Source: an uncultured Mailhella sp. (lineage in GTDB: Bacteria; Desulfobacterota; Desulfovibrionia; Desulfovibrionales; Desulfovibrionaceae). From it: a stretch of DNA of 64,000 bases. The first letter of the stretch is position 1; every line of letters begins with the position of its first letter. The position numbers were made by a program, and so were the translations under genes. Shown piece after piece: positions 2,437 to 51,076 of this stretch. The notes under the pieces were generated by a model, which was not told the DNA's origin, did not search any database, and was given only the letters and a program-made list of their open reading frames with translations. The stretch spans positions 848 to 64,847 of the forward strand of contig CAJTMS010000005.1 in the NCBI GenBank assembly GCA_910577155.1, written 5' to 3'.

Positions 2437-3265
2437 GGGAATGTATGTCTTGAGTGCTTTTCTTTGCAGAAATTTTATGAATTTGTTTTGTATCCGCTTC
2501 AATAACGGTAAATTCCCAATCGCCAATGGTAAAAACTTCATTGACAACAGGAACATGCCCTGCCTGCAGGCTTAAATAACCGCCAATGGTGTCCACTTCT
2601 TCAGATTCAATGGGAATAGCAACATCATTCAAATCATCAAGCATGGTTCGACCATGGAGCAAGTATTCATTTTCATTGATTTTTTGTATATCTTCTTCTT
2701 TTGGTGCATCAAATTCATCTTCAATGTCACCAACAATAATTTCGAGGAGATCCTCAATAGTAATCAGCCCGCTTGTTCCGCCGTATTCATCAACCACAAT
2801 GGCAATATGGTTTTTTCTGGCTCGAAATTCCTGCAATAATTCCGCAGAACTTTTTGTTTCCGGAATAAAAAATGGGGCGCGTGCGATTTTTTCTACCGGA
2901 TCAGAGTAGTCACGGTTGTTATTGATAATATACGTAAGCAAATCTTTGGCATAAATAATGCCGATAATGTTATCTTTTGTATCTTTATAAACGGGAATCC
3001 GTGAGTGCCCGTTTTCTAAAATACATTGTGCTGCTTCTTGAATTGTGGCGTCATAGGTCAGACAGGTAATATCCGTACGTGGGGTCATAATTTCCTGAAC
3101 TTGTTTTTCGCTCAGTTCCAAAACCGATAAAAGCATATTGCTCTCTTCAGCTTCAACGTCGCCCTCTTCACGTGCATCCATAATAGCTTGTTCTAAATTA
3201 TCATCAGATTTTCCAAATAAATGGGTAATCTTGTCCCACATAGAACGCTGCGAATCACCGTCCAA
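2429..3265 (-). CDS. corC: CorC/HlyC-family protein (CBS pair plus CorC_HlyC transporter-associated domain)
   Basis: Collinear with E. coli CorC (IMTPRTDI..., IAIVVDEYGGTSGLITIEDLLEIIVGDIEDEFD, EEVDTIGG). TTG start at 3265, preceded by AAGGAG. Confidence 0.85.
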   Translation of the reverse strand: MDGDSQRSMWDKITHLFGKSDDNLEQAIMDAREEGDVEAEESNMLLSVLELSEKQVQEIMTPRTDITCLTYDATIQEAAQCILENGHSRIPVYKDTKDNIIGIIYAKDLLTYIINNNRDYSDPVEKIARAPFFIPETKSSAELLQEFRARKNHIAIVVDEYGGTSGLITIEDLLEIIVGDIEDEFDAPKEEDIQKINENEYLLHGRTMLDDLNDVAIPIESEEVDTIGGYLSLQAGHVPVVNEVFTIGDWEFTVIEADTKQIHKISAKKSTQDIHSHE

Positions 3266-3597
3266 AACAAAACTCCTTTGTTATGGTTTATAAAAATGCA
3301 TTTCCCTGTGAAATACTTTAGTTATTTATAGCTTATTTTTCCTGTTCTGTCCAGTATATGACGCAGGATAAAAAATAATCGCTTTGCTATGGAACGCCGT
3401 TGGGAGAAATTTTATAGCTGTTATTTTTTTTCATTTGTGAACGCTTGGTTATAGTATACGGTTGTTTTTATAATAATTTGATTTAATTATAAAAATAGGA
3501 AAAAAGAATTTCTTGAAATATTCTGTAATAATATCACATTGTTGTAAGTTAAATCTTATGCCATGGCACAGCTGAAATAATGAAAAGGGAAAAGAAA

Positions 3598-34013: not shown

Positions 34014-34211
34014 TTATGGACGAGCCAGCCAAACAAAGAAAACTCCAAGAAGAAGGAGAAAATAACCGTAATATCTTAATTGGTATGGATCAATGTTTGC
34101 CAATTGAAATAAAAAATCTCTCATTTTTTCCGGACTGATAAGCCAAGGCAATGCTTCCAAAAAACAGGCAAAACCAAGACCGGTAAGAAGATATTTGAAA
34201 AATTCATTCAT
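34014..34211 (-). CDS. DUF2065-family small membrane protein
   Basis: 65 aa with two TM helices and a LEALPWLISPEKMR motif typical of YjeT/DUF2065. Has an ATGA overlap with the upstream gene. Confidence 0.7.
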   Translation of the reverse strand: MNEFFKYLLTGLGFACFLEALPWLISPEKMRDFLFQLANIDPYQLRYYGYFLLLLGVFFVWLARP

Positions 34212-35308
34212 TGCAGCTCATATCCGCGTTTTAAAATTGCCAGCACATCGTCTTTTGAAAGGGGCAGGACAAAAGTCCCTGCGCGTTCAGGGGTAAACAT
34301 TTCATCAATTTTACTTTGTGCTTCCTCAAGAGAACAATGTTTGCGGATAAGAATATAGGGCTTATAGCGGGTTAAAAATTCATGCATTCTGTTGATAAAG
34401 CCTTGGTCTAACGGAGTCATAAAAGCATTTTTTTCAATAATTAATTCCATAATGGGCAATAAAAATGCGGAGCATGCCAAACCGTGGGGTGCGCCATAAT
34501 GCAGGGTCAAAGGATAGGAGATGGAATGGGAAATGGAGCTGTGGCTTTGGCTGATGGCAATGCCTGCTTCCATGGCTGCTTCCTGCAAATAATAGCGGTT
34601 TTTCATGTCATACGGTTCATGCTCAATATAATGCAGGGAATTCATGACAATTTCCAAAGCCCTTTTTGCATAAAAGAGACTGAGCGGTGTTGCGTGCTTA
34701 TTCCACAGGGTTTCAAGAGCATGGGAAAAAGTATCCAAGGCACTGTATACTGTTTGTTTCCAAGGTAATGTTTTTGTAAAAAACGGATCAAGCAAGGCAA
34801 GTTTTGCATAACAGGCTCGCGTTGCTAACGAGCATTTTTTCATTTTCTGCCTGTCCCATATGGTGGCAAAACTGGTTACTTCTGAGCCGGTGCCTGCTGT
34901 TGTCGGAATGGCAACGAGCGGAATGGCTTTGGCGGGTAAGGGGCTTTTGTCGCGTAACCATGCATGCAGGGGCTTTTCATAGTCTGTCTGCATAAAGGCA
35001 CAGGAGAGAGCTTTGGCACTGTCAATGACAGAACCCCCGCCAAGGGCAATAATTGTTTGATACGTTTTGTGTTTATTTTGGCTGTAGAACGTATCAAGTT
35101 TATCTAAATCAGGTTCCGGCTGGGCGGTAAACACTTCATAGGGCAGGGATAAATAGTTTGTAATTTCCGCTAATTGTCCGCGCTCTTGTATACCTTTTGT
35201 CGTGACAATCAAAAGAGGACTTTTTTCAGGCAATACGGTATTGATTTCCTTACGGCAATCAAGTCCTGCATGGATTTCTACAGGATTATAATGTGTCCAT
35301 CCAATCAT
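34208..35308 (-). CDS. iron-containing (group III) alcohol dehydrogenase family protein
   Basis: IALGGGSVIDSAKA, PTTAGTGSEVT and histidine-rich metal-site region. I trimmed the start to the ATG at 35308 (after GAGGT); the longer ORF reads through a terminator hairpin. Confidence 0.75.
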   Translation of the reverse strand: MIGWTHYNPVEIHAGLDCRKEINTVLPEKSPLLIVTTKGIQERGQLAEITNYLSLPYEVFTAQPEPDLDKLDTFYSQNKHKTYQTIIALGGGSVIDSAKALSCAFMQTDYEKPLHAWLRDKSPLPAKAIPLVAIPTTAGTGSEVTSFATIWDRQKMKKCSLATRACYAKLALLDPFFTKTLPWKQTVYSALDTFSHALETLWNKHATPLSLFYAKRALEIVMNSLHYIEHEPYDMKNRYYLQEAAMEAGIAISQSHSSISHSISYPLTLHYGAPHGLACSAFLLPIMELIIEKNAFMTPLDQGFINRMHEFLTRYKPYILIRKHCSLEEAQSKIDEMFTPERAGTFVLPLSKDDVLAILKRGYELQ

Positions 35309-35346
35309 GGTTACCTCACTAGCATAAGAGAATGGATAAATAGTAC

Positions 35347-35378
35347 AAAAAAAAAGGAGAAAAGCAAAGCTTCTCTCC
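35347..35378 (-). terminator. intrinsic terminator downstream of trpB
   Basis: Minus strand: GGAGAGAAGC-TTT-GCTTTTCTCC (35378-35356; 9 of 10 bp) followed by T9 (35355-35347). Confidence 0.7.
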
Positions 35379-35529
35379 ATTAATTTTTTTTGCTTTGGAT
35401 GAGGATTATTTTTTGAGAAAATAATTGGTTTTGCTGTCGTTATCCGCAAGCCGGTCAATTGATGGCAGCTGCCGCTTCCCGTATTTCCTCATCGCCTCTT
35501 TTCCTTTTCATAAAACGAAAAGTTTGGGA

Positions 35530-36759
35530 TTATGGCATTTGGATAAGGTTTTGTTTAAGCATATCGGAAATCTGGTCAACGTCCTTATCACCGCGTCCGG
35601 AAAGGCAAACAAGGATTTTTTTGCCTTTCATGTCAGGAGCAATTTTAATGGCATGGGCAAGGGCATGGGCAGATTCCAGAGCAGGAATAATGCCTTGCGT
35701 TTTAGAAAGAATAAAGAAGGCGTCAATGGCTTCCTTATCCGTAACGGCAACATAGCTTGCCCGTCCGATATCTTTTAAGTAGGCAAGTTCAGGGCTGACG
35801 GAAGGATAGTCAAGTCCTGCGGAAATAGAATAAACAGGCGCTACTTCACCCTTATCATCGAGGCAAATATAACTTTTGAAACCATGCAAAACTCCTTCTT
35901 TGCCATAAACAAGGCTGGCGGCATTATCGCCTACTTTGCTTCCGCGTCCTCCGGGTTCCGCTCCCACAAGGGCAACTTCTTTTTCTTCAATAAAATGAGC
36001 AAACATGCCTGTTGCGTTGGAGCCGCCGCCAACACAGGCAATAACCATGTCAGGCAGGGTATTGGTCATTTCTTTGAATTGTGCTTTTGCTTCAAAGCTG
36101 ATAACGGATTGGAAATGGCGTACCATTTCCGGGTAAGGGTAAGGACCGACAGCGGAACCTAAAAGATAATAACTGTCTTTGTCGTTGATATATGCATCCA
36201 AAGCCTCATCAACAGCTTCTTTCAGTGTTCTTTGTCCGCTTTGGGCTGAAACAACTTCCGCTCCCATCATCCGCATACGCAGGACATTGAGCTCTTGGCG
36301 TTTGATGTCTTCTTCACCCATGTAAATGGTGCATTTTAATCCGTAAAGGGCAGATACGGCTGCTGCTGCAACCCCGTGTTGTCCTGCTCCTGTTTCTGCA
36401 ATAATATGTTTTTTGCCTAAGCGTTTTGCAAGGAGCAGCTGCCCCAGAGCATTATTGAGCTTGTGAGCCCCTAAATGGTTGAGATCTTCACGTTTCAAAT
36501 AAATATCCGCGCCGCCCAATTGTTTGGAGAGGTTTTCGCAATGAAAAATAGGGGTTGGACGACCACAAAAATGCTTGTAAAGATTGTCTAATTCAGCTAA
36601 AAAGTCTTTGTCGTTTTTGTATTTCAAAAAACATTCGGCAACTTCGTCAAGACGATCCTTCATGTCATCGGAAACAAATTGTCCGCCGTGACGTCCAAAA
36701 AAGCCGATTTTGTTTTCCTGCATGTTTTGAGCTTGAGTGTTTTGAGATTGGCAAGACAT
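35530..36759 (-). CDS. trpB: tryptophan synthase beta chain
   Basis: GRPTPIFHCENL..., YLKREDLNHLGAHKLNNALGQ (PLP lysine), GAGQHG and GGGSNA are canonical TrpB1. The ATG at 36759 is preceded by AGGAGA. Confidence 0.93.
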   Translation of the reverse strand: MSCQSQNTQAQNMQENKIGFFGRHGGQFVSDDMKDRLDEVAECFLKYKNDKDFLAELDNLYKHFCGRPTPIFHCENLSKQLGGADIYLKREDLNHLGAHKLNNALGQLLLAKRLGKKHIIAETGAGQHGVAAAAVSALYGLKCTIYMGEEDIKRQELNVLRMRMMGAEVVSAQSGQRTLKEAVDEALDAYINDKDSYYLLGSAVGPYPYPEMVRHFQSVISFEAKAQFKEMTNTLPDMVIACVGGGSNATGMFAHFIEEKEVALVGAEPGGRGSKVGDNAASLVYGKEGVLHGFKSYICLDDKGEVAPVYSISAGLDYPSVSPELAYLKDIGRASYVAVTDKEAIDAFFILSKTQGIIPALESAHALAHAIKIAPDMKGKKILVCLSGRGDKDVDQISDMLKQNLIQMP

Positions 36760-36805
36760 AGTTTTCTCCTTTTTTTTCTTCCGAACTATGCCTAGTCTGA
36801 AGAAT

Positions 36806-36835
36806 AAAAAAAAACGACCAAGCATATTCGGTCGT
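36806..36835 (-). terminator. attenuator terminator in the trpB leader
   Basis: Minus strand: ACGACCGA-ATATGC-TTGGTCGT (8 bp including one G-U pair) followed by T8 (36813-36806), 46 nt upstream of the trpB ATG. Confidence 0.7.
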
Positions 36836-36877
36836 AATTTTTTTAGGTTAAAATTTGGCTGCAAAAAATCCGACCCG

Positions 36878-36934
36878 TTATCTAACGAGCCACCACCAAG
36901 AAATATATGTGTGTTGTATTTTTTGCGTATTCAT
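36878..36934 (-). CDS. trpL: trp leader peptide (18 aa, three tandem Trp codons)
   Basis: Minus-strand ORF ATG AAT ACG CAA AAA ATA CAA CAC ACA TAT ATT TCT TGG TGG TGG CTC GTT AGA TAA encodes MNTQKIQHTYISWWWLVR. It lies between a promoter and the terminator upstream of trpB and is below the ORF-track size cutoff. Confidence 0.65.
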   Translation of the reverse strand: MNTQKIQHTYISWWWLVR

Positions 36935-36941
36935 AATGTTG

Positions 36942-36970
36942 CTTATATACAGAGCAAAAATTTTTGTCAA
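36942..36970 (-). promoter_or_regulatory. candidate sigma70-type promoter of the trpL-trpB unit
   Basis: Minus strand: TTGACA (36970-36965), 17 nt, TATAAG (36947-36942). The leader ATG lies only 7 nt downstream. Confidence 0.5.
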
Positions 36971-36988: not shown

Positions 36989-37831
36989 ATGGGACATAAA
37001 AAGAAAGTATATATCGACCCGAAAACATTGAATTTACCCTTTGCGGGCTGTGACAGCCATGCCCATATTGTAACGGCACCTTTATGGGAAGAGAGGGATG
37101 CTGTTTTGGAACGGGCAAAAGAAGCAGGCGTAAAAACCATTGGCGAAGTGCTCCTTGGGCATACGCAGTATAAGAACTGCAAAGATTATTTTAATGATAA
37201 AGAAGATGTCTTTTTTATTTATGGTCTGCATCCGACGGATTTATTGGAAATTGAGGAAGGCGAAGTGGAACGTATTTATAATGACATTGTGCAGGATAAA
37301 AAAGAAAAGCAAAAAATCAAAGCTGTCGGGGAAATAGGACTGGATTATTTTTGGCAGGAAGTTCCCCATGATTTGCAGCATGACTATTTTCGGAAAATGC
37401 TGGCTGTGGCAAAAAAATGCGAACTGCCTGTTGTTATCCACAGCCGTGATGCCTTTGAAGATACCGTTGCGATTTTGCTTGAAGAAGGTTTTGACGGGTA
37501 TCCTTTGCTGTGGCATTGCTTTGACCGTGACAGCGAGTGTGCAAAAATTGTTATGTCCCATGGCTGGCATATTTCCATTCCCGGCTCTGTAACCTATAAG
37601 GCAAATGCGCATGTACGGGAAGCTCTGCACGTTTTGGACAGGAAACGTTTGCTGGTTGAAACGGACAGTCCCTATTTGAGCCCCGAACCATGGCGGGGCA
37701 AGCCCAATGAGCCGGCATTTACCGTCTTTACAGCGGAATGTGTGGCAAAGGAATTAGGCATGGAAACCGCAGAACTTTGGGCACAATGCGGAAATAATGC
37801 CCGTCGATTTTTTGGAATGAACGAATCTTAA
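36989..37831 (+). CDS. TatD-family metal-dependent hydrolase/DNase
   Basis: CDSHAH, GEIGLDY, VVIHSRDA and ETDSPYL motifs. I trimmed the start to the ATG at 36989; the ORF-track start would overlap the trpB leader. Confidence 0.88.
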   Translation: MGHKKKVYIDPKTLNLPFAGCDSHAHIVTAPLWEERDAVLERAKEAGVKTIGEVLLGHTQYKNCKDYFNDKEDVFFIYGLHPTDLLEIEEGEVERIYNDIVQDKKEKQKIKAVGEIGLDYFWQEVPHDLQHDYFRKMLAVAKKCELPVVIHSRDAFEDTVAILLEEGFDGYPLLWHCFDRDSECAKIVMSHGWHISIPGSVTYKANAHVREALHVLDRKRLLVETDSPYLSPEPWRGKPNEPAFTVFTAECVAKELGMETAELWAQCGNNARRFFGMNES

Positions 37832-38110: not shown

Positions 38111-38145
38111 CACATAAAAACGCTCATTTTGAGCGTTTTTATGTG
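38111..38145. terminator. bidirectional terminator between the yjfB-like gene and miaA
   Basis: Perfect 15-bp stem CACATAAAAACGCTC/GAGCGTTTTTATGTG with a 5-nt loop. It overlaps the last codons of miaA. Confidence 0.7.
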
Positions 38146-39047
38146 TTTAAAAAGTCAAGAATATACGGCAGACTTTGTTCTTCCGGTCTAAACCATTTTA
38201 TGCGGCTGTCCGCTCTAAACCATGTCCACTGCCGCTTTGCGTAGGCACGGGTATTTTTATTCCAAAGTTCTTGACATTCCTGCAAATTATATTCCCCCAA
38301 AAGATAGCGGGCAAGTTCGATGCAGCCTATGCCTGTCCAGCCCGGAGCAGTGATATCCGGACAATTTTCAAGGGCTTTTTTCGCTTCCTCAAGAGCTCCG
38401 TTTTGGAGCATGACGTCTGTCCGTTTATAGAGAAAAGGCGTTAGTTCTGTGAGCGGCAAGCCAATGCCTATGCGTAAAACATCGTAATTAGTTTGCTGCG
38501 GAGTTATTTTATGCCAGTCGCTGAATTTTTTTCCTGTGGCGGCATAAACTTCCAGAGCACGGGCAATGCGCTGTTTGTCATTAAAATGAATTTTTTGTGC
38601 ATATTCGCTGTCTGTTTTTTGCAGTTCTTCATAAAGGAGGCAGCTTCCTTTTTCAGTTATTTCTTTGATAAAATGTTCATGGATATCTTTCGGAATATCC
38701 GGTATTGCAGCCATTCCGTCGAATAAAGCCCGGAAATAAAAGCCTGTTCCGCCCACAAGTACGGGAATTTGTTTGTTTTTCCATGCATGTTCAATTTCCG
38801 CTTTTGCCCTTTCCTGCCATTCACCTGCAGAGCTTGTTTCCTCTGTTTTTAAATAGCCAAAAAGTTTATGGGGGCAGAGGGATTTTTCTTCTTCACTTGG
38901 TTGTGCTGAAATAATGGGGAAATCTTTGTAGATCTGACGGGAATCCGTATTGATGATGCAAATGGGCAGACCGGCTTTTGCCATGGCAAGGGATTGGGCG
39001 GTTTTGCCTGCACCGGTAGGTCCCATGATACAAATAACTTTATTCAT
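38139..39047 (-). CDS. miaA: tRNA dimethylallyltransferase
   Basis: MNKVICIMGPTGAGKT (P-loop) and DSRQIYKDFPIISAQP. I trimmed the start to the ATG at 39047. Confidence 0.9.
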   Translation of the reverse strand: MNKVICIMGPTGAGKTAQSLAMAKAGLPICIINTDSRQIYKDFPIISAQPSEEEKSLCPHKLFGYLKTEETSSAGEWQERAKAEIEHAWKNKQIPVLVGGTGFYFRALFDGMAAIPDIPKDIHEHFIKEITEKGSCLLYEELQKTDSEYAQKIHFNDKQRIARALEVYAATGKKFSDWHKITPQQTNYDVLRIGIGLPLTELTPFLYKRTDVMLQNGALEEAKKALENCPDITAPGWTGIGCIELARYLLGEYNLQECQELWNKNTRAYAKRQWTWFRADSRIKWFRPEEQSLPYILDFLNT

Positions 39048-39555
39048 GCGGCTGCTGCGGTTGCTGCTGATATTTTTTGCAAAGGGCTTTCCAAACATTT
39101 GGGGGGATTAAATCTGATATATCACCGCCTAAACCGGCGACAGTTTTTAAATTGGTGGAGCTTACATACATGAGATGAAAATCAGCCATTAAAAAAATAG
39201 TCTGGATAGAAGGAGAGAGTTTTCTGTTCATGAGTGCCATTTGGAATTCATAATCAAAATCAGAAATAGCCCGCAGTCCCCGGACAATAGCAATTGCGCC
39301 GTGTTTTTGTGCGTATTCCGCCAATAAACCGTCAAAAGGTTCAACGATAATTTGCTCTTTGTACGGGGTTGTCTGAAAAAACTCATGGGTAAGCCGGACA
39401 CGCTCTTCAAGGGAAAATAAGGTGTTTTTGCCTGTATCGTTGGCAACACCCACTATAAGTTTATCCAAAAGAGGCAGGCTTCTTGTAATAATGCTTATAT
39501 GTCCGTTATGAATAGGGTCAAAGGTACCTGCATAAATACCTATTCTTTGTACCAT
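39040..39555 (-). CDS. coaD: phosphopantetheine adenylyltransferase
   Basis: GIYAGTFDPIHNGH, RGLRAISDFDYE and SSTNLK are canonical CoaD. Confidence 0.93.
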   Translation of the reverse strand: MVQRIGIYAGTFDPIHNGHISIITRSLPLLDKLIVGVANDTGKNTLFSLEERVRLTHEFFQTTPYKEQIIVEPFDGLLAEYAQKHGAIAIVRGLRAISDFDYEFQMALMNRKLSPSIQTIFLMADFHLMYVSSTNLKTVAGLGGDISDLIPPNVWKALCKKYQQQPQQPHE

Positions 39556-40117: not shown

Positions 40118-41737
40118 TTATAACTGGGCGATAAGCTTGTAAATATCGTTATTGAGCTTTGCAACCTTATCATGGATTTCAGTTTGGTCTTCCCATGCGA
40201 GTGAATCAACATTATTAAGCTTGTGATGGAGCTGCTTGAGACGGAAATCAAGATCATCAAAGATGAATTGCCAATCGAGTTTTGGCATGGTGTGCTTAGC
40301 AAGAGTCATAACAGCCTGTTCTTCATCGCTCGCTTTGGCAGTCAGTTCAAGTTCGTCCAAATAAGCAGGAATAATGGTATTCAAATCAAATTTTTGTTTG
40401 ATAAGTTTTCCCAGCTCTTCTTGGGATTCTTTTTCCCCGTGGACGAGGATAATTTGCGGATGGCATTTTGCAATGGCGCTCACCCATTCGAGGAGCTGTT
40501 TTTGACCTGCGTGTGCAGAAAAACCGTTAATAGTGAAAATTTTTGCTGACACATTCAAATCATTATTCATAATGTTAACAGTGGAAGCACCTTCAACAAT
40601 TTTACGTCCAAGGGTACCGACAGCCTGAAAGCCTACAAAAACAATAGATGTTTCCGGACGCCAAATATTGTGTTTTAAATGGTGTTTGATACGCCCTGCG
40701 TTACACATGCCGCTTGCAGAAAGAATAATCATTGGTCCGTCCATGGCGTTCAGAGCCTGTGATTCTTCTGTTCCTAAGGTGTAATTAATTGCAAAGCCAA
40801 AATCGACAATAGGCGGTAAATCGTCTTTTATTTCAGGAAGATCAAGGTCATTTTTATATTTTTCAAAAACTTCCGTTGCTTTAATTGCTAAAGGGCTGTC
40901 CAGATAAATCGGCATATCATGCGGTAATTTTCCTTCACGGTAGAGCAAAAAGAGGCAATAAATAATTTCCTGTGCTCTTTCAACCGCAAAGGTCGGGATA
41001 ATAACTTTACCGCCTAATTTGTAGCTGCGGTTAATGGCTTTGGAAAGTTCTTCAAGGCTGTTTTCATCATCCTTGTGGTTTCTGTTGCCATATGTAGATT
41101 CAAGGAACAGATAATCGGTTTTTTCAAGTGGCTGCGGGTCATGCAAAAGCATATTTTCATGTCTGCCAAGGTCACCGGAAAATGTCAGACGCTTTGTTTC
41201 ACCGTTTTCAGTAATATCAATAACAATAAAGGCAGCACCCAATATATGGGCAGCGTATTTATAGGTAACTTTAATATTGGGGACAGGTTCAAAGGTTTTA
41301 TTAAATTCAACAGGAGAAAATTGTTTTAAACAAGCTTGCGCTTCTTCAAGACTGTACAAAAGGTCGTCGTCTTTTTTCTTTTTCCCTTTTCTTTTTCTTT
41401 GTTTTTCACGCCAAGTATATTCCATTTCCTGAATGTGGGCACTATCTTCAAGCATGAGGGAAACAAAATCAAGGGTCGGAGCAGTGCAGTAAACAGTTCC
41501 TTTAAATCCATTGGCAGCAATACGGGGAATAAGACCTGAATGGTCGATATGGGCATGGGTCAGCAAAATAAAATCTAAAGAATCAGGTCGGTAAAGCTCG
41601 GAATTAAAGTTTCTGTCTTCAATAGCTTTGTTACCTTGGTGCATTCCGCAGTCAATGGCAAATCTGTGACCTGCCGCTTCGACGATATGGCAGGAACCCG
41701 TAACTGTTTGGGCAGCACCTAAAAATTGTACTTTCAT
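40118..41737 (-). CDS. MBL-fold beta-CASP ribonuclease-like hydrolase
   Basis: LTHAHIDHSG, beta-CASP and RMMBL regions (ESTYG, GFSAHAG, LVHGE), plus an approximately 90-aa coiled-coil-like C-terminal extension. Confidence 0.85.
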   Translation of the reverse strand: MKVQFLGAAQTVTGSCHIVEAAGHRFAIDCGMHQGNKAIEDRNFNSELYRPDSLDFILLTHAHIDHSGLIPRIAANGFKGTVYCTAPTLDFVSLMLEDSAHIQEMEYTWREKQRKRKGKKKKDDDLLYSLEEAQACLKQFSPVEFNKTFEPVPNIKVTYKYAAHILGAAFIVIDITENGETKRLTFSGDLGRHENMLLHDPQPLEKTDYLFLESTYGNRNHKDDENSLEELSKAINRSYKLGGKVIIPTFAVERAQEIIYCLFLLYREGKLPHDMPIYLDSPLAIKATEVFEKYKNDLDLPEIKDDLPPIVDFGFAINYTLGTEESQALNAMDGPMIILSASGMCNAGRIKHHLKHNIWRPETSIVFVGFQAVGTLGRKIVEGASTVNIMNNDLNVSAKIFTINGFSAHAGQKQLLEWVSAIAKCHPQIILVHGEKESQEELGKLIKQKFDLNTIIPAYLDELELTAKASDEEQAVMTLAKHTMPKLDWQFIFDDLDFRLKQLHHKLNNVDSLAWEDQTEIHDKVAKLNNDIYKLIAQL

Positions 41738-50443: not shown

Positions 50444-51076
50444 ATGGCTACTTTAAAAGTTTACGATCAAATGAAACAAGAACAAGGTGAAATCACTCTT
50501 GCTCCTGAAGTATTTGAAGTAGAGGTACGCCCTGAGATTCTTAACTTGGTTGTTCGTGCTCATCGTGCTGCTTTACGTGCAGGTACTCATCAAGTTAAAA
50601 CTCGTGCGTTTGTAAGTGGTGGTGGTAAAAAACCTTTCAAACAAAAAGGCACAGGTAATGCCCGTCAGGGAAGCAATCGCTCACCTATTATGCGCGGCGG
50701 TGCAATTATCTTTGGACCACAACCTCGTGATTATAGTTTTAAAGTTAATAAAAAAGTGCGCACTTTGGCTTTGCGTATGGCTTTATCTTCCCGTGTTGTC
50801 GACAATGACGTCATGGTTGTTAAATCCATTGACCTGGCTGAAGCAAAAACCAAAAACTTTGCAAAAGTTGCAAAAGATCTTGGTTTGACAAAAGCACTTG
50901 TGGTTACCCCTGGTGATGATATGCTGAAAGATAATACTGTAGCGCTTGCTGCTCGTAATATCCCGGGCATTACGGTGGTAACACCAGAAAAGGTTAATGT
51001 TTATGAAGTGCTCAATCACAAGCAAGTTGTCCTCCTTGAAGGAAGCTTGTCACACCTTGAAGCACGTCTTAAATAG
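50444..51076 (+). CDS. rplD: 50S ribosomal protein L4
   Basis: Canonical L4 (KQKGTGNARQGS) in the conserved gene order. Confidence 0.96.
   Translation: MATLKVYDQMKQEQGEITLAPEVFEVEVRPEILNLVVRAHRAALRAGTHQVKTRAFVSGGGKKPFKQKGTGNARQGSNRSPIMRGGAIIFGPQPRDYSFKVNKKVRTLALRMALSSRVVDNDVMVVKSIDLAEAKTKNFAKVAKDLGLTKALVVTPGDDMLKDNTVALAARNIPGITVVTPEKVNVYEVLNHKQVVLLEGSLSHLEARLK

Follow-up and report, generated by a model that had tools for sequence, protein, structure and literature searches.

We analyzed a 64,000-nt stretch of DNA from an uncultured Mailhella sp. (contig CAJTMS010000005.1, positions 848 to 64,847 of the forward strand), henceforth referred to as the window, and identified upstream of its stand-alone trpB gene a probable ribosome-mediated, Trp-responsive attenuator of the trpL type. 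From comparative sequence analysis and folding models, we estimate the probability that such an attenuator controls this monocistronic trpB at about 85%. A short open reading frame (ORF) with three tandem Trp codons is followed by a series of alternative RNA pairings that ends in an intrinsic terminator ahead of trpB. The pairing segments are numbered 0 to 4, and 1:2, 2:3 and 3:4 denote the helices between them; segment 0 was recognized in minimum free energy (MFE) structures. The elements of the locus are as follows.

36970-36965, minus strand: -35 box TTGACA of the leader/trpB promoter, read in the sequence
36942-36948, minus strand: -10 region, either TATAAG (36947-36942) with a 17-nt spacer or TG-n-ATATAA with a 16-nt spacer
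36878-36934, minus strand: unannotated leader ORF of 18 codons plus stop, with its ATG at 36934, predicted product MNTQKIQHTYISWWWLVR
36890-36898, minus strand: three tandem Trp codons (TGG TGG TGG), the putative regulatory codons, read in the sequence
36918-36926, minus strand: segment 0, GCAAAAAAU, leader codons 3-6, which pairs with AUUUUUUGC (36869-36861) and encloses hairpin 1:2
36884-36892, minus strand: segment 1, the 5' arm of hairpin 1:2, UGGCUCGUU, which begins inside the third Trp codon
36863-36879, minus strand: segment 2, the 3' arm of hairpin 1:2 plus GGAUUUUUU, with segment 1 or segment 3 as partner
36828-36844, minus strand: segment 3, an A-run plus the 5' arm of the terminator, AAAAAAAUUACGACCGA, with segment 2 or segment 4 as partner
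36806-36821, minus strand: segment 4, the 3' arm of the terminator, UUGGUCGU, plus the U-run, the predicted site of premature termination
36835-36828 / 36821-36814, minus strand: terminator stem ACGACCGA/TTGGTCGT, with a 6-nt loop and a T-run to 36806
35530-36770, minus strand: stand-alone trpB, the putative regulated gene, with its Shine-Dalgarno (SD) sequence AGGAGA (36770-36765), ATG at 36759 and stop at 35530
35356-35378, minus strand: intrinsic terminator 3' of trpB, a 10-bp stem followed by T9

The leader codons read ATG AAT ACG CAA AAA ATA CAA CAC ACA TAT ATT TCT TGG TGG TGG CTC GTT AGA TAA. The -10 region ends 7-8 nt before the leader ATG on the minus strand, and transcription is predicted to start at the leader AUG or a few nt from it. 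The T-run ends 46 nt before the trpB ATG. The identity of trpB is supported by a match to TIGR00263 at 550 bits (cut-off 392, NCBIfam). The genes beyond it encode an Fe-alcohol dehydrogenase and glmU, and no other trp gene lies nearby. We consider trpB monocistronic because it is followed by the terminator at 35378-35356 and then by these unrelated genes. An earlier note on this DNA, made from the letters alone, had described a promoter (TTGACA, 17 nt, TATAAG), the leader ORF with its three TGG codons, and a terminator with a 6-nt loop and a T-run, followed by the SD sequence of trpB; all of these proved to lie exactly where it had placed them.

We assessed whether the tandem Trp codons could have arisen by chance. 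Each strand of the 64 kb contains the motif TGGTGGTGG once, and the plus-strand copy, at 50617, is out of frame within a 210-aa ORF. A scan of both strands (128 kb) for ATG-initiated mini-ORFs of 8-40 codons with three consecutive Trp codons (WWW) returned the leader and a version of it that opens at an in-frame upstream ATG (36997) and runs into the leader. In dinucleotide-preserving shuffles of the intergenic region, a WWW mini-ORF appeared in 0 of 20,000 and one with two consecutive Trp codons (WW) in 36 of 20,000. A chance origin of the WWW leader is excluded.

The element is conserved ahead of orthologous genes. We compared 17 stand-alone trpB loci, five from species-representative genomes and 12 retrieved by protein search and contig look-ups. 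The closest TrpB loci among the species-representative genomes belong to uncultured Mailhella metagenome-assembled genomes (MAGs), with 70-88% identity, and to a Desulfovibrionaceae MAG (64%). The 12 further orthologous loci have 63-81% TrpB identity; they include Pseudodesulfovibrio tunisiensis and Desulfotalea psychrophila, and other added contigs carry proteins source-named Desulfovibrio ferrophilus, Halodesulfovibrio sp., Maridesulfovibrio sp. and Desulfomicrobiaceae bacterium. A WWW mini-ORF starting with ATG lies 150-200 nt upstream of trpB in 14 of the 17 loci, and a WW mini-ORF in one more. These 15 share a common layout, in which the WW(W) mini-ORF is followed by a hairpin that begins at the last Trp codon and has the stop codon inside it, and then by a terminator with a U-run. 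The leader-bearing loci span Mailhella, Desulfovibrio, Pseudodesulfovibrio, Halodesulfovibrio, Maridesulfovibrio and a Desulfomicrobiaceae-labelled contig, and differ widely in nucleotide sequence and G+C. Their predicted leader peptides are listed below by locus.

L001: MKAQKIQHSYISWWWLVQ
L002: MNTQKIQHSYISWWWLVQ
L003: MKTQKIQHSYISWWWLVK
L161: MNMQKIQHSYISWWWLV
L004: MKSQVQNIFQSQNWWWLCNL
L162: MKTQISKTFTMEMNWWWLVV
L163: MNTQIIKSSPMQTSWWWLES
L005: MNTTMRAFASSQWWWLW
L172: MNTTHALDLFSWWWLWRSKPRG
L167: MQNEIVLSLTSGNWWWRC
L170: MQKTNNSSILSLRNWWWRL
L171: MNVSFTNFTLFFWWWRS
L169: MHTAHTALINLFWWWPCSTGPRGSACV
L166: MYKHASSLSSNALQGWWWRISMRRGDVRA
L165: MLYNLYAPSRIWWRPSL

As a control, we scanned 146 unrelated trpB loci (<60% identity) in the same way and detected no WWW mini-ORF (0/146) and two WW mini-ORFs (2/146). 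The metagenome TrpB matches listed were all ≤58% identical and were used as a background set only. The trpB gene stands alone in all 17 related loci, and its neighbors vary from locus to locus (tatD, miaA, UbiD, cheB, HD-domain, tRNA-synthetase-like, GntR and other genes); the leader element therefore travels with trpB. Eight Mailhella-type leaders vary in the N-terminal half of the peptide, in the loops and in the spacers; their invariant parts are the Trp codons, the two arms of hairpin 1:2, GGGTCGGATTTTTTGC, CGACCG, GGTCG and the T-run. Such a pattern would be expected of selection on RNA structure and Trp codons rather than on the peptide. The Trp codons are likewise invariant in alignments A1 and A2, the latter comprising six GC-rich leaders aligned with MAFFT. 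The stop codon falls inside hairpin 1:2 in most leaders, and the ORFs of L166 and L169 are longer. In the window, the leader UAA (36880-36878) sits where the loop of hairpin 1:2 meets the 3' arm, and its last two bases belong to segment 2.

Two other short ORFs were noted upstream of trpB genes. In Desulfotalea psychrophila (L168, 3900-4003), which has no WW leader, TTGACA-N17-TAGAAT-N8-ATG opens an ORF with a single Trp codon, MNISSSRPKGHDLFFWSKK..., that extends into the trpB start in a different frame; it could be the relic of a leaderless leader or a coincidence. One of the two background WW loci, from a Lactobacillaceae MAG (L035), has the mini-ORF MMNMNGNINIVNLWWSFS about 150 nt upstream of trpB. 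Possibly, this Firmicute has an independent Trp leader peptide.

We then considered whether the RNA could switch between structures. In the window, hairpin 1:2 has a folding energy of -9.3 kcal/mol (z = -4.8), and the terminator core one of -9.8 kcal/mol (z = -4.2), or -13.8 kcal/mol (z = -5.9) with its A/U extension. The 2:3 pairing is the MFE structure of its own segment (-10.8 kcal/mol). The whole leader fold has z = -3.2, and a generic scan marked both hairpins, 1:2 and the terminator, as terminator-like. To represent the different states of translation, we used a masking model in which the ribosome hides the mRNA up to 12 nt beyond its A-site codon and the RNA is folded as made before segment 4 emerges. 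Without a ribosome, the window leader forms hairpin 1:2 together with the enclosing segment-0 helix, and 0 of 7 bases in the terminator 5' arm of segment 3 are paired, leaving the terminator free to form. With the ribosome stalled at any of the Trp codons, GGUCGGAUUUUUU of segment 2 pairs with AAAAAAAUUACGACC of segment 3 at -10.8 kcal/mol and occupies 5 of the 7 bases of the terminator 5' arm. With the ribosome at the stop codon, segment 2 is hidden and segment 3 is free, again giving the terminator. This succession of terminator, antiterminator and terminator was obtained in 10 of 12 modelled leaders, including that of the window, and per-sequence folds of four loci added later also contain the stalled-state 2:3 pairing.

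The model assigns a role to segment 0. When the 5' part of the leader is omitted from the fold, 2:3 prevails over 1:2 in the Mailhella type (5/7 paired), and for this reason we take the segment-0 helix to be a functional part of the anti-antiterminator. In these folds, the Mailhella-type anti-antiterminator is hairpin 1:2 plus the enclosing helix, and not 1:2 alone. RNA pairing, and not the peptide, may thus be what conserves the nucleotides of CGCAAAAAATACAACAC in Mailhella leaders. An analogous enclosing helix was also seen in GC-rich relatives, for example CCCUCAC/GUGGGAG in L167.

Covariation among the GC-rich leaders supports helices 1:2 and 3:4. For the terminated state (1:2 plus 3:4) in alignment A2, 88% of cells are paired, compared with 31-50% when the partners are slid by 1-3 columns. 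Double-sided changes occur in 6 of 17 pairs, a level reached by 1 of 500 shuffles, and the covariation score is 0.239 versus 0.107 (0/500 shuffles). Compensatory changes in helix 1:2 include GGCUCUG/CAGAGCC, GGCGCUG/CAGCGCC, GGCCCUG/CAGGGCC and GGCUUUG/CAAAGCC. A2 misplaces the register of segment 2 in L170 (by +1) and L171 (by -2), and because of these mis-registered rows we replaced the covariation test of 2:3 by per-sequence folds and by tests of the duplex against shuffled sequences. In the correct register, the terminator 5' arm pairs with the segment just 3' of 1:2 through GCCGCG, GCCGUGG, GCCGCGG or GGUCG, depending on the lineage. In L171, a G>A change in segment 3 (CCGCGAC) is matched by C>U changes in both segment 2 (GUCGCGG) and segment 4 (GAUCGCGG). 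No other single piece of evidence speaks as strongly as this triple compensation for 2:3 and 3:4 pairings that exclude each other. In five independent lineages, the 2:3 duplex was stronger than with shuffled versions of segment 2, at <0.001, 0.006, 0.027, 0.033 and 0.058, and the window duplex outperformed all 1,000 shuffles. The automatic picking of the 1:2 arms fused adjoining hairpins in L003, L005, L162, L166 and L167; L003 shares its segment 2 with the window, so its value of 0.19 is an artefact.

The earlier note had proposed that the 1:2, 2:3 and 3:4 pairings exclude one another and had suggested folding the RNA and looking for a Trp-rich mini-ORF in relatives. The computational tests that it named came out in its favor: the folds per ribosome state and the L171 change support the proposed exclusivity, and the WW(W) leader with hairpin 1:2 and terminator was recovered at 15 of the 17 orthologous loci. 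Its overall interpretation, ribosome-mediated trp attenuation, is thereby supported by conservation, state-dependent folds and covariation.

The locus thus combines tandem cognate codons in a 5' leader ORF (UGG three times before trpB), an intrinsic terminator between this ORF and the structural gene (36835-36814 with the T-run to 36806), an antiterminator that is exclusive with the terminator and is the stalled-state MFE structure of its segment in all leaders tested, and a hairpin 1:2 that starts in the last Trp codon and overlaps the regulatory and stop codons. We propose that transcription from TTGACA-N17-TATAAG would begin at or near the leader AUG and that the 18-codon leader would be read from a leaderless mRNA. 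When charged tRNA-Trp is ample, the ribosome would clear the three UGG codons, reach the UAA in hairpin 1:2 and cover segment 2. This would leave segment 3 available for the 3:4 hairpin, which together with its U9 run would stop transcription about 46 nt short of trpB. Under a shortage of charged tRNA-Trp, the ribosome would stall at a UGG codon and cover segment 1, with the segment-0 helix already melted. The freed segment 2 would pair with segment 3 once it is made, blocking the terminator stem and allowing the polymerase to enter trpB. If no ribosome loads, hairpin 1:2 and the enclosing helix would sequester segment 2, making termination the default. Antitermination would be kinetic, the terminator being the more stable structure at equilibrium. 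Of this scheme, sequence and computation show the elements, their conservation, the covariation and the state-dependent folds; we infer the transcription start, leaderless translation, actual termination and its actual dependence on Trp.

Several results weigh against the attenuator interpretation. The leader is missing in two of the 17 orthologues, L164 and the Desulfotalea locus L168. In the window, the 2:3 pairing taken alone is no more than modestly unusual (z = -1.9, with 13 of 200 shuffles as good), and on the unrefined MAFFT alignment its covariation is not significant (74% paired versus 33-51% when slid; 85/500 shuffles). The outcome of the masking model is less clean in L165 and L166, where segment 3 pairs upstream even without a ribosome. 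Finally, full-length equilibrium folds retain an intact terminator even under the stalled-ribosome mask. Antitermination must be kinetic, because the terminator is always kept at equilibrium.

The leader peptide is likely to be translated from a leaderless mRNA, because across loci the distance from the -35 box to the ATG is fixed and an SD sequence is absent. In 14 of 16 loci, TTGAC(A) and the leader ATG are 35-37 nt apart; in L171 the interval is 39 nt. The ATG of the relatives is preceded, at 6-8 nt, by a TA-rich hexamer that resembles a -10 box. No GGAG, GAGG, AGGA or AAGG was found within 20 nt upstream of the leader ATG in any of the 15 aligned loci. The -35 spacing holds for divergent and co-directional upstream genes and across very wide G+C. 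The earlier note had regarded the lack of an SD sequence and the 7 nt between the -10 element and the ATG as an oddity. Both features are borne out; as a weakness of the proposal the point does not stand, the arrangement being conserved in 14 of 16 loci. Three observations count against a leaderless start. The L166 ATG lies 58 nt from its TTGACA; the openly searchable literature yielded no account of leaderless translation in Desulfovibrionaceae; and the promoter is absent from the output of the generic scan, which omits it because it demands the canonical final T that TATAAG lacks.

The first and the last of these would fit an attenuator that works identically on a leader that is not leaderless, transcribed from a farther-upstream promoter (in or beyond the tatD start) and translated from a non-canonical ribosome-binding site. 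TATAAG is an imperfect -10 that the scan left unflagged, and L166, which also has an AGG 10 nt upstream of its ATG, shows that a leadered arrangement can be tolerated in the family. We nevertheless regard this as improbable: the TTGAC-ATG distance has persisted in 14 of 16 loci despite full sequence turnover and different upstream genes, no locus has an SD-like motif within 20 nt upstream, and the window leaves just 54 nt between the leader ATG and the divergent tatD start codon. A different modification of the attenuator would make hairpin 1:2 with GAUUUUUU (36892-36863) in the Mailhella type a pause site or weak early terminator in itself, and the whole a two-checkpoint attenuator. The 1:2 hairpin of the E. 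coli trp leader serves as a pause signal, the generic scan read 1:2 as terminator-like (nine pairs, then GATTTTTT), and GGGTCGGATTTTTTGC is invariant in the eight Mailhella-type loci. The stem is weak, however, at -9.3 kcal/mol and with G-U pairs, and the U6 run of the Mailhella type is already explained by its pairing with the segment-3 A-run and with segment 0. The GC-rich lineages (L005, L167 and L169-L172) lack the run, which is therefore not a core feature. We consider a second checkpoint possible and rather unlikely.

The released leader RNA of ~130 nt, the 18-aa peptide, or both could also act in trans, as the closest analogue, rnTrpL/peTrpL of Sinorhizobium (S.) meliloti, does (PMC6614838, PMC7298713). 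The leader N-termini MNTQ, MNTT or MKTQ recur in divergent lineages (the window, L002, L163, L005, L172, L003 and L162) and resemble the MANTQ of the leaderless peTrpL. This likeness could stem from common ancestry, from a first-codon constraint of leaderless mRNAs or from chance, and the N-terminus is equally well explained by such an initiation constraint or by segment-0 RNA pairing. Outside WWW, the peptide is poorly conserved across genera, and we found no target, partner or conservation exceeding the needs of attenuation in cis, which makes a trans function doubtful. Very improbable, and effectively refuted by the comparative sequence data, is the reading that would dispense with the ribosome altogether and treat the ORF as a chance neighbor of a bidirectional terminator or insulator, or invoke control by a protein or tRNA (T-box, TRAP-like). 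The terminator is indeed palindromic, is flanked by A and T runs and reads on the plus strand too. Set against this, tatD and trpB diverge and no gene ends at the terminator on either strand in the window; the WWW ORF is present in 14 of 17 relatives versus none of the 146 controls; the stop codon lies within hairpin 1:2 in most leaders; and no T-box or other Rfam family was detected in the window or in 14 relatives. Two further candidates were rejected. The terminator does not belong to an upstream gene, tatD being divergent, and TnaC-like sensing of free Trp has the wrong logic for a biosynthetic gene and would involve a Rho-dependent rather than an intrinsic terminator.

The Rfam scan of the whole window and the 14 related loci at gathering thresholds found no leader, T-box or riboswitch. 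At E ≤ 10, the locus gave 13 sub-threshold matches, and neither Trp_leader nor T-box was among them. The only leader families were Phe_leader on the wrong strand (18 bits versus 55) and ylbH on the minus strand (16.9 versus 50); the other matches included MicC (plus strand) and preQ1-II. Such matches arise because the terminator is palindromic and the SD region is A-rich, and the plus-strand MicC and Phe_leader matches in particular reflect the palindromic attenuator terminator (36806-36844).

We compared the proposed attenuator with known systems. The E. coli trp leader follows the same four-segment logic, in which the 3:4 terminator is more stable than 2:3 and antitermination is kinetic. Its leader ORF has tandem Trp codons immediately ahead of or within segment 1 and a stop codon whose position lets the terminating ribosome cover segment 2. 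The scheme of 1:2, 2:3 and 3:4 pairings followed by a U-run is shared by enterobacterial trpL and the locus described here. The E. coli leader has an SD sequence and a 5' untranslated region, two Trp codons and the whole trpEDCBA operon downstream, and operates with the TrpR repressor, whereas here there are no SD sequence, three Trp codons, a segment 0 and trpB alone. The enterobacterial Trp_leader model of Rfam does not match the locus even at E ≤ 10.

The closest known system is rhizobial trpL (S. meliloti trpL-trpE(G)), which is similar in length, leaderless and has WWW near the C-terminus of its peptide. The S. meliloti rnTrpL transcript starts with the trpL ATG and encodes a leader peptide with three consecutive Trp codons (PMC7298713). 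The choice between terminator and antiterminator depends on the ribosome, and RNA and peptide are also trans-acting (PMC7298713, PMC6614838). Both systems would place a ribosome-dependent switch upstream of a trp biosynthesis gene. Rhizobial trpL regulates trpE(G), the first enzyme of the pathway, whereas the putative target here is a stand-alone, monocistronic trpB, the last step. Rhizobia belong to the Alphaproteobacteria and the Desulfovibrionales to a different phylum-level lineage, and we detected neither RNA homology between the two leaders nor a match to an Rfam family. The leaderless status was measured in rhizobia and is predicted here. The enclosing helix is an additional feature of our system, as is the Mailhella U6 run after 1:2, which might add a pause. 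Leaderless leader peptides have also been reported elsewhere. Deinococcus deserti has 14 predicted cases, including one upstream of trpEGD with the transcription start site (TSS) 1 nt from the AUG (PMC4007540), and mycobacterial leaderless poly-Cys short ORFs act as attenuators of operonic gene expression (bioRxiv 10.1101/834739). In D. deserti and Actinobacteria, the TSS is at the AUG of a short ORF that is rich in the cognate residue and precedes biosynthesis or tRNA-synthetase genes. Leaderless mRNAs are very common in both groups; on their frequency in Desulfovibrionaceae, we found nothing in the literature.

We found no earlier description of a trp attenuator in Desulfovibrio or the delta-proteobacteria, including at DVU0085/trpB-1, in the openly searchable literature, a scope that excludes subscription-only papers. 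A 2004 reconstruction of delta-proteobacterial regulons (Rodionov 2004) did not mention tryptophan (PMC545781). A RegPrecise-based survey included 10 Desulfovibrionales genomes and relied on four Rfam amino-acid-leader models; it suggested a gamma-proteobacterial origin of such attenuators with very few transfers (PMC3766115). An exact look-up of five leader peptides of at least 20 aa in a collection of 15 billion proteins returned none of them. The finding is a probable lineage-wide Desulfovibrionales case of the classical trp attenuator, and the mechanism itself is textbook. It gives an unannotated 18-codon gene and a leader RNA of ~130 nt a regulatory annotation that can be tested, and places the same element before stand-alone trpB across the Desulfovibrionales, an order that is absent from the Rfam amino-acid-leader models. 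Judging by the comparative data, it would also be an independent and comparatively well supported case of a leaderless leader peptide beyond Actinobacteria, Deinococcus and rhizobia, and it is relevant to the coupling of transcription and translation where ribosomes load at the 5' end. The arrangement suggests that induction of the orphan trpB is specific to a shortage of charged tRNA-Trp. Such induction would fit a presumed role of the gene in making tryptophan from indole, a compound abundant in the gut. A bolder proposal, which we consider a long shot, is that the leader is related to leaderless rhizobial trpL, with its ~130-nt RNA or peptide acting in trans, or that it marks a salvage of indole by orphan TrpB during Trp starvation. 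If true, sulfate reducers of gut and sediment would salvage environmental indole, and leaderless initiation would be required for the kinetics of sensing.

The remaining observations concern the neighborhood of the attenuator in the window. The divergent neighbor encodes a TatD-family hydrolase (NCBIfam) with its ATG at 36989 on the plus strand, and the tatD-trpB intergenic gap is 229 nt. The generic scan found no plus-strand promoter-like site for tatD between the attenuator terminator and this ATG; the tatD promoter must therefore overlap the leader region. Downstream of trpB, the mechanically called Fe-alcohol dehydrogenase ORF (34208-35458, minus strand) opens at a TTG upstream of the trpB terminator. 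Its true start lies downstream of that terminator, because family matches begin at about residue 55.

About 1.2 kb farther upstream, on the strand of the leader, lies miaA (38139-39098, minus strand), which encodes a tRNA i6A37 dimethylallyltransferase; in L163, miaA (2651-3535) directly precedes the leader and trpB. The substrates of MiaA are tRNAs that decode UNN codons, tRNA-Trp among them. A 2026 paper ties MiaA to Trp attenuation in Pseudomonas (PMC13434334). The proximity of miaA and leader may be coincidental synteny. A 539-aa metallo-beta-lactamase/beta-CASP protein (40118-41737, minus strand) has as its best NCBIfam match 'type VII CRISPR-associated Cas14', with a score of 396 bits that is far under the cut-off of 800. 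It also matches aCPSF1-type beta-CASP RNases and, as in L163, is syntenic with rsmD-coaD-miaA; we regard it as a probable housekeeping beta-CASP ribonuclease.

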